Below, in pieces: positions 15,136-53,890 of a stretch of DNA of 64,000 nucleotides. The notes under the pieces are model-generated. The model made no database searches. It had not been told where the DNA came from and saw nothing but the letters and a program-made list of their open reading frames with translations. The stretch spans positions 243,412,001 to 243,476,000 of the forward strand of contig OZ024740.1 of the NCBI GenBank assembly GCA_964016885.1, given 5' to 3'. A program made the position numbers and the translations under genes. The DNA is from Eledone cirrhosa. Lineage: Eukaryota. Each line of letters starts with the position of its first letter. Position 1 is the first letter of the stretch.

Positions 15136-16132
15136 TTATACATGGCAAATGGCTCACTAGTATAATGGTGTTGGTGATATAGGCTAGGAGGTATAATAGA
15201 TGTGAACATATATAAGACATTATGACAACCTCACTATTTCTGGGGTTTTGATAAAATGCACTCAGTAGAATGCGTAAATGAGATGCAGGCTCCCAACCTA
15301 TACGAGCACTTCGTAGAGCATGAGAATGCATGCAAGCAAGAAACAGGCTCTTGGCTATTTGATAATGGTGAAGTTGATGATGATGATGAATCCCTTACCC
15401 TTATATTCCATCTACCACCCTTTTTAATTACCCTCCCATCTATCATTCTCCTTCACACATTCTCCAATTCAATGTACCTTCTTGCTTGCAGAACAAGGGA
15501 TGGCATTAGAACTGTACATATTCAATCTCACTGTCATTATCCTGCAATCACTTTAGCTCTCTACAATCATAGCATCTTTGTAATGAGGGATAGAATCTTA
15601 TCTGTCCATATCCAGTACACAATACCATCATTTTTCTCTACCACTAACCATTATTCTCACTCTATCCTTATGTCTATTTATTGACATCTACCATTTCAAC
15701 CATCTTAATTTACCTTCATCTATCTCTATTAGCACAGCCGTTAAAACATCAGATAGAATGCTTTGCCATATTTGTTTCAGCTCTCTGCATGGTCACCTTT
15801 GCCTTTCATCCTTTTGAGGTCAATAAAAAAAGTACCAGTCCAATATTGGGGATGATTCTTCCTTTCTCTCCTTTCTTTCTTTCTTCCTCTCTCAACCTTT
15901 CGAGTTTTATAAAGAAAATATTAGTAGGTGCAGGTGCAGCCCTCTCTCATACCAGCTGTCACATCCTGAATGTTCTACTGAATCAAGGGAGGGAGGATCA
16001 AGAGGATGTCTGTCTGCTCACTACTGTATGAGCACCTAAAACCTTCACCAAAAGAACTCACCTCTTAAGCCATATCAGTAGAATGACCCTGCTATTCTTG
16101 CTCTTGTGTTGGCATATAAACAGAATGGCAAA

Positions 16133-18929: not shown

Positions 18930-21270
18930 ACACATACATGCACTTACACACATACATACACTTACACACATACATACACTTACACACATACATACACTTA
19001 CACACATACATGCACTTACACACATACATGCACTTACACACATACATGCACTTACACACATACATGCACTTACACACATACATGCACTTACACACATACA
19101 TGCACTTACACACATACATGCACTTACACACATACATACACTTACACACATACATGCACTTACACACATACATGCACTTACACACATACATGCACTTACA
19201 CACATACATGCACTTACACACATACATACACTTACACACATACATGCACTTACACACATACATGCACTTACACACATACATGCACTTACACACATACATG
19301 CACTTACACACATACATGCACTTACACACATACATGCACTTACACACATACATGCACTTACACACATACATACACTTACACACATACATGCACTTACACA
19401 CATACAAGCACTTACACACATACATACACTTACACACATACATACACTTACACACATACATACACTTACACACATACATACACTTACACACATACATGCA
19501 CTTACACACATACATGCACTTACACACATACATGCACTTACACACATACATGCACTTACACACATACATGCACTTACACACATACATGCACTTACACACA
19601 TACATGCACTTACACACATACATGCACTTACACACATACATACACTTACACACATACATGCAATTACACACATACATGCACTTACACACATACATGCACT
19701 TACACACATACATGCACTTACACACATACATACACTTACACACATACATACACTTACACACATACATACACTTACACACATACATACACTTACACACATA
19801 CATGCACTTACACACATACATACACTTACACACATACATACACTTACACACATACAGGCACTTACACACATACATACACTTACACACATACATACACTTA
19901 CACACATACATACACTTACACACATACATACACTTACACACATACATGCACTTACACACATACATGCACTTACACACATACATGCACTTACACACATACA
20001 TGCACTTACACACATACATGCACTTACACACATACATACACTTACACACATACATACACTTACACACATACATGCACTTACACACATACATGCACTTACA
20101 CACATACATGCACTTACACACATACATACACTTACACACATACAGGCACTTACACACATACATACACTTACACACATACATACACTTACACACATACATG
20201 CACTTACACACATACATGCACTTACACACATACATGCACTTACACACATACATGCACTTACACACATACATGCACTTACACACATACATACACTTACACA
20301 CATACATGCAATTACACACATACATGCACTTACACACATACATGCACTTACACACATACATGCACTTACACACATACATACACTTACACACATACATACA
20401 CTTACACACATACATACACTTACACACATACATACACTTACACACATACATGCACTTACACACATACATACACTTACACACATACATACACTTACACACA
20501 TACAGGCACTTACACACATACATACACTTACACACATACATACACTTACACACATACATACACTTACACACATACATACACTTACACACATACATGCACT
20601 TACACACATACATGCACTTACACACATACATGCACTTACACACATACATGCACTTACACACATACATGCACTTACACACATACATACACTTACACACATA
20701 CATACACTTACACACATACATACACTTACACACATACATGCACTTACACACATACATGCACTTACACACATACACTTACACACATACATACACTTACACA
20801 CATACATACACTTACACACATACATACACTTACACACATACATGCACTTACACACATACATACACTTACACACATACATACACTTACACACATACATGCA
20901 CTTACACACATACATGCACTTACACACATACATACACTTACACACATACATACACTTACACACATACATACACTTACACACATACATACACTTACACACA
21001 TACATACACTTACACACATACATGCACTTACACACATACATGCACTTACACACATACATGCACTTACACACATACATGCACTTACACACATACATACACT
21101 TACACACATACATACACTTACACACATACATACACTTACACACATACATACACTTACACACATACATGCACTTACACACATACATACACTTACACACATA
21201 CATACACTTACACACATACATACACTTACACACATACATACACTTACACACATACATACATTTACACACA
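18930..21270. repeat. 18-bp minisatellite CACTTACACACATACAT(G/A), ~130 units
   Basis: Directly visible; accounts for the long spurious ORFs on both strands. Confidence 0.98.
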
Positions 21271-21516
21271 TATATATACTGCTATGGAAAACATTAAAGC
21301 TCAGAATTTAAAAGAAAGCAGAGTTTTGTTTTTATTTCATATCATTATATATATGTAGGTAACCATGAGCATGTGTATATGTGTGTTTATAAATGCATAT
21401 ACACACATATACATAGATAGACATGCACTCATACTCATAGGCACACACATTCACACATGCACTTCTAAATAGATTTGAAGTATTGAATTATGAGTTACCC
21501 TAGAAAAACGAAACAC

Positions 21517-27260: not shown

Positions 27261-27373
<113 letters not shown>

Positions 27374-27662
27374 CAAATAACGAAACGAAATTAAATTTCG
27401 TTTCGTTTGTAACTCACTTTTGTATGACTGACGCTTAAACAATTAAGTTAAAGATGTACATCCATATATGTATACTGAAATACTAGTATGTATATGAATA
27501 CACACACGTATACATATGTAGGTGTACCAAGTTTTTTCACTGGTCACTTTACTGTGAGTGGCCAGCTATTCTGTATGTAAACACACAGACAAACCGGTTT
27601 TTAGAGTCATACTGGTTTTTGAGGAAACACCTCTCCTCTATTCTCCAGAAAGCCAGACAAGG

Positions 27663-27707
27663 AATATTGAACTAGTTTCGTTGTTGTTACAACTCATCAG
27701 CAATATT
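27663..27707 (-). ncRNA. Minimal type I hammerhead ribozyme
   Basis: AATATTG-CTGATGA-GTTG-TAACAA-CAAC-GAAA-CTAG-TT-CAATATT: 7-bp stem I, 4-bp stem II, palindromic AACTAGTT stem III. Confidence 0.85.
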
Positions 27708-28034
27708 TACCTATCTTCCGGCCTCTCTAGAGAATCGTAAAAGCACATATCGTTATATGCTTTTTCTATGAAAATTAGTAGTGGGCAGACTAATTTGCAT
27801 AGAGTGTGAGTAAGTACCGGTTCAACGGAGACGATAAAAACAAATAACGAAAAGAAATTAAATTTTTTTCGTTTGTAACTCACTTTTGTATGACTGACGC
27901 TTAAACAATTAAGTTAAAGATGTACATCCATATATGTATACTGAAATACTAGTATGTATATGAATACACACACGTATACATATGTAGGTGTACCAAGTTT
28001 TTTCACTCTCTCTAGAGAGGCCGGAAGATAGGTA

Positions 28035-28079
28035 AATATTGCTGATGAGTTGTAACAACAACGAAACTAGTTCAATATT
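28035..28079 (+). ncRNA. Minimal type I hammerhead ribozyme
   Basis: Identical motif; predicted GUU cleavage at 28072/28073. Confidence 0.85.
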
Positions 28080-28500
28080 CCTTGTCTGGCTTTCTGGAAA
28101 ATAGAGGAGAGGTGTTTCCTCAAAAACCAGTATGACTCTAAAAACCGGTTTGTCTGTGTGTTTACATACAGAATAGCTGGCCACTCACAGTAAAGTGACC
28201 AGTGAAAAAACTTGGTACACCTACATATGTATACGTGTGTGTATTCATATACATACTAGTATTTCAGTATACATATATGGATGTACATCTTTAACTTAAT
28301 TGTTTAAGCGCCAGTCATACAAAAGTGAGTTACAAACGAAAAAAATTTAATTTCGTTTCGTTATTTGTTTTTATCGTCTCCGTTGAACCGGTACTTACTC
28401 ACACTCTATGCAAATTAGTCTGCCCACTACTAATTTTCATAGAAAAAGCATATAACGATATGTGCTTTTACGATTCTCTAGAGAGGCCGGAAGATAGGTA

Positions 28501-28545
28501 AATATTGCTGATGAGTTGTAACAACAACGAAACTAGTTCAATATT
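28501..28545 (+). ncRNA. Minimal type I hammerhead ribozyme
   Basis: Identical motif; predicted cleavage at 28538/28539. Confidence 0.85.
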
Positions 28546-28967
28546 CCTTGTCTGGCTTTCTGGAGAATAGAGGAGAGGTGTTTCCTCAAAAACCAGTATG
28601 ACTCTAAAAACCGGTTTGTCTGTGTGTTTACATACAGAATAGCTGGCCACTCACAGTAAAGTGACCAGTGAAAAAACTTGGTACACCTACATATGTATAC
28701 GTGTGTGTATTCATATACATACTAGTATTTCAGTATACATATATGGATGTACATCTTTAACTTAATTGTTTAAGCGTCAGTCATACAAAAGTGAGTTACA
28801 AACGAAACGAAATTTAATTTCGTTTCGTTATTTGTTTTTATCGTCTCCGTTGAACCGGTACTTACTCACACTCTATGCAAATTAGTCTGCCCACTACTAA
28901 TTTTCATAGAAAAAGCATATAACGATATGTGCTTTTACGATTCTCTAGAGAGGCCGGAAGATAGGTA

Positions 28968-29012
28968 AATATTGCTGATGAGTTGTAACAACAACGAAAC
29001 TAGTTCAATATT
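28968..29012 (+). ncRNA. Minimal type I hammerhead ribozyme
   Basis: Identical motif; predicted cleavage at 29005/29006. Confidence 0.85.
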
Positions 29013-29258
29013 CCTTGTCTGGCTTTCTGGAAAATAGAGGAGAGGTGTTTCCTCAAAAACCAGTATGACTCTAAAAACCGGTTTGTCTGTGTGTTTACAT
29101 ACAGAATAGCTGGCCACTCACAGTAAAGTGACCAGTGAAAAAACTTGGTACACCTACATATGTATACGTGTGTGTATTCATATACATACTAGTATTTCAG
29201 TATACATATATGGATGTACATCTTTAACTTAATTATATATATATATATATATATATAT

Positions 29259-30810: not shown

Positions 30811-31173
30811 TTTTATTACTTCTTTCATACTGTTATTGTAATGTGTTGCTCTCTGGTGGTGTTCTTTTTCTATTTTTTTCATTTACTTGTGTATATATAT
30901 ATATATCATCATCATCATCATCATTGTTTAATGTCTATTTTCCCCACTAACATGGGTTAGATGGGTTACTCATAATATATATATATATATTGTTATATTT
31001 GGGGAAGGTCATATTGTTATAGTATTGCCAGAAATAATAATAAAACACACTCACTGTTTGGTTTGGATTGGTTTTCGCTTCTCTATATTTTATATCCCTA
31101 TAGTTAATTTAGCTGGCAATCAATGTTTGTCATTGATTGACGAATGGTTAAAAATATAGATATAAATATATAT

Positions 31174-31657
31174 CAAATGTATATATTGAGTTAGAAACTC
31201 AAAATAGTTTCTTACAACAAAATAGCTCTAGGAAAGAGATATTTCCGAGCCGTATATTATAACTGAATATAAAAGAAAAACAAATACAGATATATACATA
31301 TATGTGTTCAAATCGTAAGGGACCAGATTCACTAAGAATAAATCAAGAAAATAAATGCAAACCAGAATTGTGGTAACTACCAATCACCCAGACAGCTTTG
31401 GCAATGCTGTTTCGCAAAATTAATTGTGAAGAGGAATACCGATTCTTGCTCATCAGTGGGTGAAGAATTAGTATCCTGGTCACTGCTAAGTATATTAAAA
31501 AACTGAATAGTGTGCGTATATATAATAACGCACATGGTATCTGAACTTAGTGTGTCTCACAAACTCACACCACTAAAAATAGCAGCCAGGTTTACTCGAC
31601 ATTTGAATTAGCTCAACAAATTAACGGAGCCGAATATATCAAAGTTAGAAACTCAAT
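31174..31657 (-). mobile_element. 484-bp non-coding hammerhead-bearing insertion with TSD
   Basis: GATATAAATATATAT duplicated at 31159-31173 and 31658-31672; AGTTAGAAACTCAA repeated at 31189 and 31643; absent from the paralogue at 1631-1650. Confidence 0.8.
31384..31463 (-). ncRNA. Canonical type I hammerhead ribozyme
   Basis: Minus strand TCACCCA-CTGATGA-GCAAGA-[loop]-TTTTGC-GAAA-CAGC-ATTGCCAAA-GCTG-TC-TGGGTGA: 7-bp stem I, 6-bp stem II, 5-bp stem III, GUC cleavage triplet. Confidence 0.9.
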
Positions 31658-31680
31658 GATATAAATATATATATATATAT

Positions 31681-31807
31681 ATCAGTTCCTGTATGAGCAA
31701 GGCATGGTCAGCCGACCAGACACTGCCCACAACAGGACAACCCGTCTAACCCATGCTAGCGTGGAAGAACGGACGTAAAACGGTGATGATGATGATGATG
31801 ATGATGA
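31681..31807 (+). mobile_element. RTE subfamily C tail, extreme 5' truncation
   Basis: Identical by eye to 35710-35835; starts in a TA run. Confidence 0.9.
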
Positions 31808-32199
31808 GTCTATCAAAGTTCTTTCATCACACACCTGTGACATCATCAGTGGTACTATTATGTTTCCTCCCGTTGTATTGTAATGTATATTCTATTCTTT
31901 ATTTATTTATTTTTAACCGTTAGTCAATCAATGATAAACATTGATTGCTAGCTAAATTAACTATAGGGATATAAAATAATCAGAAGCGAAAGCCAATCCA
32001 AACCAAACAGTGAGTGGCAATATTATAACAATATTGCCCTCCCCAAATATAACAATATTTGTTTCAACACATGATTTCATATCAAAAATCTTGCAAAACA
32101 AATTCATCGATATCTATATATATATAAAACAACAAAACAACAAAACAACAAACAACATCCCGACCTGCCTAAGCAACCTCATCAACCCATCCATGGTAT

Positions 32200-33330: not shown

Positions 33331-35840
33331 TACGACAGTAAAGGAGAACAGATAGAGACATTTAACGTAGAAGAGAACTGGGAGTTCCTAAAAAATAACT
33401 TACTAGAGGCGACGGATGAGGTTTGTGGCTGGAGTAAGACCTCAAGCAGGAGGAGAGTGACTTGGTGGTGGAACAATAAGGTAGATGAAGCAGTCAAGGC
33501 CAAGAGACAGGCATGGAAAGAATGGAAGAACGGGGGGAGCAGGGTACATTACATAGAGACCAAGAGGGAAGCTAGGCGACAAGTATACTTAGCTAGGAGG
33601 GAAGCAGAGGATAGAAAATTCAAGCATGTTTTACAACGTGAGGACCAGAAACAGGAGGTATTCAAGATTGCGAGGCAGTGTGTCAGAGATAGTTGTGATG
33701 TCATTGGAGAGAAGTGTATCCGGAATGATAAAGGTGAGCTTGCCCTCACAAGTGCTGAGAAGAAAGATGCATGGAAGAGTCATTATGATAGATTACTAAA
33801 TGAGGAGAATGCATGGGAAGAAGAGACCCTACCCCATGTAGACCCTATAGAGGGACCAGCAGTACAAGTCAGCGGCAGCGTAGTAAGTAAGGCAATCAGA
33901 GATATGAAGATGGGGAAGGCAACCGGTCCATCGGGGATAGCTGCCGAGATGCTGAAGGCATCTGGGTCTGTAGGTCACACTATAACCACACGTATCGTTA
34001 GCCAGGTAATACTAGAAGGGGCCATACCAAAAGATTGGTGCAGTAGCATCATTGTCAACTGCTACAAAGGTAAAGGCGATGCACTAGATAGAGGAAACTA
34101 TAGAGGTATAAAGTTGATGGACCAGGTCATGAAAGTAACAGAAAGAGTTATAGCACAGCTGATTAGGGACCGGGTGAATATAGACGAGATGCAATTTGGG
34201 TTTGTACCAGGGAGAGGCACCACTGATGCCCTCTTCCTTGTGAGGCAATTACAGGAAAAGTACCTAGCTAAAAGTAAGCCACTCTACTTGGCATTTGTCG
34301 ACCTCGAGAAAGCCTTTGACAGAGTTCCACGTGCAGTAATCTGGTGGGCTCTTAGAAAACTAGGAGTAGATGAATGGCTTGTGAAAGCGATACAAGCCAT
34401 GTATAGGGGAGCAGTCAGCAAAGTTAGGATTAGCAGTGAGTATAGCGAGGAATTTAGCGTACAGGTTGGGGTCCACCAGGGCTCTGTTCTTAGCCCTCTC
34501 CTGTTCATCATAGTCCTGCAGGCAATAACGGAGGAGTTTAAGACCGGATGCCCATGGGAACTCCTGTATGCTGATGACCTCGCACTCATAGCTGAATCTA
34601 TGGTAGAACTAGAGAATAAATTCCAAACCTGGAAGCAGGGACTAGAGAGAAAGGGCCTCAAAGTCAACATGACAAAGACTAAGGTCCTTGTAAGTAGACG
34701 AGAAAACAGAACCCAGATCCCCTCAGGGAAATGGCCTTGCTCAGTATGTAGGAAAGGTGTAGGTAGGAACTCCATTCTCTGCCCCAAATGCAAACAATGG
34801 GTACACAAGAGATGTAGCGGGATCTCAGGAAGCTTAATTAAGAATGTAGGATTCACATGCAGCAGCTGTGCTGAAACAGCAAGCAAACAGCCACAGGAAA
34901 CAAGTACCACCAATCTCTGGGAGGGCCCTGTAGAAACAGTAGACAGCTTCTGCTACCTAGGTGACCGAATTATCAACGGAGGTGGGTGCTCAGAAAGTAC
35001 AATAACTAGGGTAAGAACGGGATGGAAGAAGTTTAGGGAACTACTACCACTGCTAGCTGCAAAAGGCTTCTCCCTCAGAATGAAAGGCAGACTGTATGAT
35101 GCGTGTATCCGAACAGCGTTGTTGCATGGTAGTGAGACCTGGGCGCTGAAGGTGGAAGACTTATGTAGATTAGAGAGAAACGAAGCCTGCATGCTCCGAT
35201 GGATGTGTAACAGTAATATACGTGAACGACAAAGCATAAAGGAATTGAGAGAGAGACTGAGCATAAGAGGAATCAAATGCTGCGTGCAGGAGAGGCGGTT
35301 ACGCTGGTATGGACATGTGATGCGTATGAAGGATGACAGCTGCATAAAAAGGTGCAGAGCACTAGAAGTTGATGGAAACCGCGGAGTGGGGAGACCCAAG
35401 ATGACTTGGGATGAGGTGATAAAAGCCGACCTTACCCAACTACACCTCTCAAAGACAATGACACACGACCGTGACTTCTGGCGTCACGCAGTAATACAGG
35501 GTACCCGACCTCCCATGGGTACATGCTGAAGCATATAAACAATATGCCCCCACTCCCCCCACCGCAAGGTGGTCGTGGAGGTGCCACGGCAAAAAAGCAC
35601 CCAGCCCACACTGTAAAGTGGACGTGTAGGCGCCACGAAAAAGCACCCAGCACTCACTGTAAATGAGGTTGGTGTTAGGAAGGGCATCCAGCTGTAGAAA
35701 TCAAGCCAGATCAGTTCCTGTATGAGCAAGGCATGGTCAGCCGACCAGACACTGCCCACAACAGGACAACCCGTCTAACCCATGCTAGCGTGGAAGAACG
35801 GACGTAAAACGGTGATGATGATGATGATGATGATGATGAT
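33331..35840 (+). mobile_element. RTE LINE subfamily C, 5'-truncated, young
   Basis: Uninterrupted frame from the (TA)n junction to the stop at 35529; 3'UTR; (GAT)n tail. Confidence 0.95.
33457..35529 (+). CDS. RTE reverse transcriptase (no EN domain; truncated) with PHD-like finger
   Basis: [39 protein letters not shown]4HC3 finger, SFCYLG, RLRWYGHV, GRPKMTW. Confidence 0.9.
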   Translation: MTWWWNNKVDEAVKAKRQAWKEWKNGGSRVHYIETKREARRQVYLARREAEDRKFKHVLQREDQKQEVFKIARQCVRDSCDVIGEKCIRNDKGELALTSAEKKDAWKSHYDRLLNEENAWEEETLPHVDPIEGPAVQVSGSVVSKAIRDMKMGKATGPSGIAAEMLKASGSVGHTITTRIVSQVILEGAIPKDWCSSIIVNCYKGKGDALDRGNYRGIKLMDQVMKVTERVIAQLIRDRVNIDEMQFGFVPGRGTTDALFLVRQLQEKYLAKSKPLYLAFVDLEKAFDRVPRAVIWWALRKLGVDEWLVKAIQAMYRGAVSKVRISSEYSEEFSVQVGVHQGSVLSPLLFIIVLQAITEEFKTGCPWELLYADDLALIAESMVELENKFQTWKQGLERKGLKVNMTKTKVLVSRRENRTQIPSGKWPCSVCRKGVGRNSILCPKCKQWVHKRCSGISGSLIKNVGFTCSSCAETASKQPQETSTTNLWEGPVETVDSFCYLGDRIINGGGCSESTITRVRTGWKKFRELLPLLAAKGFSLRMKGRLYDACIRTALLHGSETWALKVEDLCRLERNEACMLRWMCNSNIRERQSIKELRERLSIRGIKCCVQERRLRWYGHVMRMKDDSCIKRCRALEVDGNRGVGRPKMTWDEVIKADLTQLHLSKTMTHDRDFWRHAVIQGTRPPMGTC

Positions 35841-53793: not shown

Positions 53794-53890
53794 GATATAT
53801 ATATATTTATATCATCATCATCATCATCATCATCATCATATATGTGTGTGTGTGTGTGTGTACGTATATATATATATATATATATATATA

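Follow-up and report, generated by a model that had tools for sequence, protein, structure and literature searches.

A 484-bp insertion carrying a predicted hammerhead ribozyme splits a high-copy repeat in a 64-kb stretch of the Eledone cirrhosa genome (hereafter the window), and raises the question of what kind of element it is, from what RNA it was copied and which enzyme placed it there. A preliminary description had proposed that a ~454-nt circular or tandem RNA was copied from arbitrary points, giving circularly permuted copies. The feature was found to be real and a known kind of element but the permutation model to be wrong, and behind the feature lies a new, testable cis-element.

The insertion in the window and its family

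As had been claimed, the insert of 484 bp lies between two exact copies of a 15-bp target duplication, GATATAAATATATAT. The features of the locus are:

30974-32055: host repeat in two parts (30974-31173, 31807-31912), then a partial arm in inverted orientation at 31904-32055
31159-31173: left target-site duplication; its last TAT also fits the element's own start site
31174-31639, minus strand: monomer of a ~517-bp family, 466 bp here; the RNA 3' end at 31174 is the reverse-transcription start site S1
31225-31250, minus strand: S2 hairpin module, with GCUC, a 5-bp inner stem, a 2-nt bulge and GAGC
31329-31336: junction left by the loss of 51 bp between two TAAG words, only in the window copy
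31384-31463, minus strand: type I hammerhead motif with intact core, predicted cut 31391/31390
31611-31630, minus strand: S1 hairpin module, GCUC-C...G-UU-GAGC, 9 nt from the monomer junction 31639/31640
31640-31657, minus strand: terminal overlap, in which a second monomer begins (CAA, a gap of 12 bp, AGTTAGAAACTCAA), with one extra T
31658-31672: right target-site duplication, an exact 15-bp copy of the left one
31681-31807, plus strand: second, unrelated 127-bp insertion in the same site, a non-LTR retrotransposon 3' tail ending in (TGA)n
1631-1650: unfilled paralogous site, within another host-repeat copy

Besides 31159 and 31658, the duplicated sequence has two further occurrences in the window, at 1632 and, on the minus strand, at 53799. 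The host repeat is indeed unbroken at 1631-1650, where an empty site had been seen, although this is a paralogous repeat copy (88-90% identical) and not an orthologous allele. It was also unbroken in 11/11 other host copies retrieved by a search that ranks uninterrupted copies first and so favours unbroken ones, with the exact 15-mer present once in 8/11. The gap between filled and empty site is ~630 bp because the second insertion, which had been overlooked, shares the filled site. In contigs of three sequencing runs from one sample of unrecorded kind, none of the joints listed skips exactly the insertion. The host repeat (also at 1450-1760) measures ~310 bp and is present in high copy, with a TA-rich flank and a partial arm in inverted orientation; it has 3518 candidates in the genome and is possibly another non-autonomous Penelope-type family.

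The second insertion is 100% identical to 35710-35836, which lies directly behind an RT/PHD open reading frame (ORF) 4 kb away; many older copies of this tail are present in the window, and it may have arrived either later or earlier than the ribozyme element. We take the (TGA)n tails of the two identical copies to suggest the RTE clade. Among the 15 of 51 ORFs scanned, the RT ORFs of the window belong to AP-endonuclease/RT/PHD non-LTR elements and not to Penelope-like elements, and no ORF of 150 aa overlaps the ribozyme element. An 18-bp minisatellite (130 copies, 97% identity) followed by a long CCA repeat occupies 18930-21272. At 27367-29234 lies a 467-bp hammerhead array with an inverted arm at 27367-28007, in which Rfam finds three HH9-like matches; both of its outer 3' ends (unit positions 293 and 366) are on (TA)n and leave a one-sided 73-bp tail. 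The ribozyme element was correctly described as dissimilar to the 467-bp unit, with one AT-rich match only (E 0.002). The array lacks the GCUC/GAGC module, and therefore its partner enzyme probably differs from that of the window family.

Sequence and a constrained fold both gave the type I hammerhead core with three helices that had been claimed (numbering follows the general hammerhead scheme). Stem I has 7 bp (TCACCCA at 31463-31457 with TGGGTGA at 31390-31384), stem II 4-6 bp with a loop II of ~25 nt, and stem III 5 bp, around the core words CUGAUGA (31456-31450) and GAAA (31413-31410) and a GUC triplet. Rfam misses this hammerhead at the gathering threshold and even at E 10. Folding prediction placed the active fold 4.6 kcal/mol above the free ensemble in the window copy and 2.4 kcal/mol above it in the full monomer. 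The core was intact in 19/41 sampled hammerheads of the family, GAAA was mutated in both units of the sole tandem pair inspected (L121), and a non-exhaustive family search, with that one tandem, saw no intact tandem source. From the predicted folds, self-cleavage of the monomer appears doubtful. Loop II, judged by eye, may form a putative pseudoknot with sequence 5' of stem I.

The family unit measures ~517 bp (13/16 measured periods within 510-520 bp), is non-coding and occurs in head-to-tail repeats. A 24-mer from the hammerhead is matched exactly 139 times in the genome and one from near the RNA 3' end 911 times (reversed controls 0), which indicates a 5'-truncation gradient. Terminal redundancy 454 bp apart had been reported and is present, the 14-mer AGTTAGAAACTCAA being found in the window only at 31189 and 31643, where with CAA it makes up the overlap; the spacing, however, is not the unit length. 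It results from two deletions, one of 51 bp at 31332/31333, whose junction sequence is present once in the whole genome, and one of 12 bp inside the overlap (454 + 51 + 12 = 517), so the ~454-nt RNA that had been proposed was abandoned in favour of a ~517-nt unit. Differing from the per-column family majority at 15 of 466 sites (family median 5.7%), the window copy is by sequence comparison among the less diverged members, and is an unremarkable copy that is probably dead. Clear duplications of non-repetitive target sequence, 8-17 bp long, were found at L039, L043, L070, L167 and L168, and a general scan gave a modest excess of duplications (26/115 insertions against a control mean of 14.5 and maximum of 22).

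A sister family of 547 bp is 69% identical to the window family over its 3' 230 bp and carries its own hammerhead (CUGAGGA, a GUU triplet and a long loop II, with GGUAUUC common to both families). It is young, with copies 94-99% identical and tandems of up to four units, for example at L207:2051-2598 (G000:C2, near 205.66 Mb) and G000:C3:4976140-4978245. Further diverged hammerhead families with the same hairpin module were seen at L142:3700-4500, L247 and L286-L291.

Fixed 3' ends and the hairpins beside them

Many further copies are present in the genome. Of 120 loci sampled by internal anchors, 4 duplicates and that of the window copy were set aside, leaving 115 insertions, among them the apparent duplicates L184 and L185. 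Start points in these 115 were not permuted. Outward 3' ends (n = 195) fell at reference positions 1-10 (S1; 83), at 78-88 (S2; 84) or elsewhere (28), so that 167/195 lie at two fixed sites ~84 nt apart, and only the 5' ends are scattered. TA-rich DNA adjoins 128/195 outward 3' ends compared to 10/33 5' ends. The two sites are ~185 and 270 nt downstream of the predicted ribozyme cut, and the ribozyme, correctly described as mid-element, is there because copying starts at fixed internal sites and not at a random point. Copying of a ~454-nt circle or tandem RNA from arbitrary points, though it would produce the monomer-plus-overlap shape, a mid-element ribozyme and read-through of junction and cut, is extremely improbable given the ~517-bp unit, a 454-bp spacing that depends on a deletion unique in the genome, and 167/195 ends at two sites.

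The monomer junction was read through in 35/115 insertions, to a length of up to 2.4 units, and the predicted cut was spanned in 80/115, with an insertion ending at the cut in only 3/115. The template was therefore a circle or an uncut multimer, and target-primed reverse transcription from circular or tandem RNA, as the preliminary description had it, is supported. Fixed ends, or copies that are fragments of a coding Penelope-like element, had been set out there as observations against it; the 3' ends are fixed, and no copy examined runs on into Penelope-like coding sequence of its own. We consider it very unlikely that the copies are 5'-truncated pseudo-LTR ends of a longer coding element. 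Such elements share the tandem and inverted structure, the tail and the (TA)n targeting, and retrozymes in Xenopus are described as related to pseudo-LTRs (bioRxiv 10.64898/2026.07.22.740005), but the 35/115 copies that pass position 519 return to position 1, and tblastn with seven local Penelope-like proteins (Hydra clade excluded) matched 6/173 loci of the window and sister families. These six appear, in an overall view and not locus by locus, as neighbouring insertions.

Two inverted arms were present in 81 of the 115 insertions, and the family displays partial tandems, inverted 5'-truncated arms and a one-sided tail, as Penelope-like insertions do. Where both outer ends of a two-armed insertion lie at S1 or S2 (n = 57), 56 combine S1 with S2, one has S2 twice and none S1 twice (56/57; binomial P = 4e-16). 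The sister family obeyed the same one-of-each rule in 15/16 two-armed insertions from a sample selected for S1 arms. In ~16 simple two-piece insertions, identified by eye, each arm has sequence missing from the other, which excludes copying of one arm from the other by fold-back. Across 38 insertions, arms of the same insertion differed by 6.2% compared to 11.1% for arms of other loci, and shared 36% of variant sites compared to 7%, as expected from one template, although subfamily age or gene conversion could also contribute. Of 56 arms from S1, 8 stopped at the foot of the S2 hairpin (positions 39-55) and none at 56-87. In L1 twin priming, reverse transcription of the element RNA is primed from both target 3' ends and leaves an inverted 5' part, with a variable second site and non-overlapping arms; in the window family both sites are fixed and the arms overlap by up to hundreds of bases. 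The window copy is likely a one-armed outcome, with priming at S1, one full round and a few bases more.

In the RNA 3' of each start site lies a bulged hairpin of GCUC, an inner stem, a 2-nt bulge and GAGC, with the site ~6 nt 5' of it. Other family copies end ~6 nt 5' of the S2 hairpin, near 31257 in window coordinates, and the distance from the S1 hairpin to the junction is likewise 6 nt in the window copy when the ATA common to target and element is assigned to the element. The sister family has a 6-nt spacer at both sites, with which the window family is compatible within its AT microhomology. A hairpin descriptor matched three times in the window, two of the matches being the S1 and S2 modules, and two matches in a shuffled element occurred in 1/3000. 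The third, lone match is at 15289 on the plus strand; the chance mean is 1.05 per shuffled window. A genome pattern for two modules gave 3235 matches compared to 41 in the control, some of them unrelated minisatellites, which suggests a large superfamily in this genome. Among loci of the E. cirrhosa genome, the first pair is Watson-Crick in 121/177, with all four pair types (shuffles, maximum 61).

A Hydra-clade element with the same hairpins

The double-hairpin pattern led to a coding element in which a hammerhead and two modules 101 nt apart are followed by a start codon:

L273:3036-5717 (G000:C955), minus strand: candidate partner ORF, an open frame of 894 aa

The motifs RWR, DKT, YRDD and CNCRVSANC (the CxCX5C linker), with no CCHH, were compared by eye with the Hydra definition and supplement sequences of Craig et al. 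(PMC8557442), in which the clade is described by RWK, DKT, a CxCX5C linker, a C-terminal GIY-YIG without CCHH, a hammerhead and (TA)n targets. On these motifs the element fits the Hydra clade. Its unit is 4.6 kb compared to the <3 kb described for the clade (PMC8557442), with a 3' UTR of 1.8 kb and an asparagine-rich insert between RT and endonuclease. The hammerhead matches RF00163 with E 1.5e-5, below the gathering threshold, and a Pfam search of the protein returned no RT or GIY-YIG match. A hammerhead 28-mer of this family has 2353 occurrences in the genome. At 30 loci, 30/32 ends lie just before one module, typically with 6 nt between, and the two-armed insertions, paired by eye, are S1+S2 in 13/13.

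A Pfam search for GIY-YIG, from which 20 long and 30 short loci of 150 matches listed were used, gave seven other Penelope-like families; none has the module at its ends or the 3' end of the window family, and they were rejected as partners. The Hydra partner was not recovered among the loci that this search retrieved. Young Penelope-like families with a C-terminal GIY-YIG and long frames were seen at L124:4309-7122 (minus), L126:1275-4562 (plus), L127 and L139. L139 has two 3' ends ~60 nt apart in one two-armed insertion, and one of these families carries a minimal hammerhead and two alternative 3' ends.

The partner protein has 257 homologues, the closest named one an octopod protein with 43% identity; metagenomic relatives have 31-43% identity over the matched part. 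In the 53/78 metagenomic loci whose match starts near the N-terminus, a module lies upstream of the ORF in 46/53 and two modules in 28, compared to 7/152 background windows; some loci are near-duplicates and the module counts are therefore only partly independent. Module pairs are 55-71 nt apart, and 11/15 mappable element ends lie 1-5 nt before a module. The pair beside the bulge is Watson-Crick in 67/68 metagenomic modules (shuffles, mean 41, maximum 53) and the next two pairs in 47 and 38 (shuffle maximum 33 and 29), so that three inner pairs covary well beyond shuffles, but do so only if the bulge is set at 2 nt. These counts used modules anchored at both ends; in a MAFFT alignment (65 modules) the 5' strand was misplaced. 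In the supplement of Craig et al. (PMC8557442), both modules stand at the start of Hydra-1_Ajap and one is present in the 3' end of Hydra-2_Amil; the supplement passage for Hydra-1_Obim has GCTC words with no evident partner strand.

The window family resembles the Hydra clade in its (TA)n targets, a hammerhead near the 3' end, tandem and inverted insertions and a tail at one end (PMC8557442), and the hairpin pair is common to both. In contrast, the window element has no ORF, and no extended homology was found between it and the pseudo-LTR of the local Hydra family. The tail is ~84 bp in the window family, 101 bp in the local Hydra family and 55-71 bp in metagenomic relatives, compared to 30-40 bp reported in other clades (PMC8557442).

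How the family may insert, and what it means

We consider it likely that this ~517-bp non-coding hammerhead family, with ends fixed beside two hairpins, is inserted by a Hydra-clade Penelope-like RT-endonuclease that docks on the hairpins. The enzyme would nick both strands of an AT-rich target ~15 nt apart and begin copying ~6 nt 5' of a hairpin. The hairpins would be its binding sites, with one enzyme copy per hairpin and one per target strand, and priming of both strands, with one primer per hairpin, would give two inverted arms with the 84-bp tail on one. Both primers probably use one RNA held by two enzyme copies. An unlikely alternative keeps the same element and enzyme and derives the arms from two RNAs, or the tail from an intermediate resolved by the endonuclease, a proposal of Craig et al. 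(PMC8557442), with the hairpins acting at the DNA level or only in packaging. Templates of the same age can explain the similarity of the arms, and the Penelope endonuclease of D. virilis required the tail sequence to be present in the DNA (cited in PMC11167929). Independent RNAs, however, predict S1+S1 or S2+S2 in about half of insertions, compared to 1/57 seen; the ends lie at a fixed distance from each hairpin; and both sites are RT starts in vitro in the Poseidon element (PMC11167929).

As the template, a ribozyme-cut, ligated circle and an uncut multimer are in our judgement about equally probable; ligated circles were proposed earlier for Penelope-like elements (PMC4209133). To a reading in which the hammerhead is a passenger, the family spreading from uncut multimer transcripts of a few master arrays with no circular RNA, we give somewhat less than an even chance, and it is otherwise compatible with hairpin-docked insertion on all points. 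Ribozyme mutants had no effect on insertion of the Poseidon element PAc in vitro (PMC11167929), and the competing fold and the lack of a pile-up of arm ends at the cut site (3/115) agree with it. Against it, each module lies 3' of its start site and escapes the first round of copying, which would cost a linear lineage one junction in every generation if it were not restored by a circle, a template jump or a long-lived master array, and related families retain the hammerhead core despite ~30% divergence.

By its sequence features the window element is a non-LTR retrozyme with a Penelope-type insertion pattern, its cleavage and circles putative. It resembles metazoan non-LTR retrozymes (PMC7229834; bioRxiv 10.64898/2026.07.22.740005) in being a non-coding, AT-rich repeat with a type I hammerhead, tandem and monomer copies and target duplications >4 bp. 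Those retrozymes co-occur with Penelope-like elements, their proposed movers, and their expression and circular RNA have been demonstrated (same reports). The unit is larger than the 170-400 nt of invertebrate retrozymes and inside the 51-972 bp vertebrate range; its copies are mostly dispersed, truncated and inverted and not in long arrays, and loop II has ~25 nt. For the window family a partner clade and a common cis-element can be named, and the accessible text of the metazoan retrozyme papers names neither.

The closest mechanistic parallel is PAc of Anolis, whose protein cuts AT-rich DNA on both strands, both of which are extended; two internal start sites define the tail, RNA 3' of the start is required, a dimer is predicted and ribozyme cleavage is dispensable in vitro (PMC11167929). 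The window family shares with it the two internal starts, a tail equal to their distance and a binding signal proposed 3' of the start. PAc belongs to another clade, with one AC-rich stem-loop and an unmapped binding motif compared to one hairpin per site here, and in the window family the priming sites have 2-6 nt of AT in common with the target; in the accessible text of that report no strand difference in start site was seen and coupling within one insertion is not reported (PMC11167929).

Published work already covers retrozymes carried as passengers by Penelope-like elements, a tail confined to one of the inverted arms, and initiation at two sites. The hairpin pair, the spacing rule, the Hydra-clade link and the strict pairing are new relative to the literature searched; the hairpin pair was not found described there, outside subscription journals, Repbase reports and the supplements of PMC11167929 and PMC7229834, and the words 'hairpin' and 'stem-loop' each have 0 occurrences in the text and supplement of PMC8557442.

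These results make two questions testable, namely which enzyme moves animal retrozymes and how the inverted arms and one-sided tail of Penelope-like elements originate. The E. cirrhosa genome offers a matched set, in which a Hydra-clade ORF open over 894 aa is found together with young non-coding passenger families, a covarying RNA element at a fixed spacing from the start site and a near-absolute one-of-each rule. More tentatively, at just short of an even chance, the hairpin pair may be a ruler in Hydra-clade elements across marine animals, two enzyme copies on one RNA starting ~5-7 nt 5' of the hairpins on opposite strands to give the arms and the tail, with a large group of circular retrozymes in the E. 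cirrhosa genome parasitising the enzyme by means of the pair and a hammerhead alone. If so, a ~130-nt cis-cassette would be enough to write any RNA circle into (TA)n DNA. For the builders of RNA-templated insertion tools, an RNA signal that is short and portable, and that serves a telomerase-related enzyme able to prime on both DNA strands, would also be of interest.
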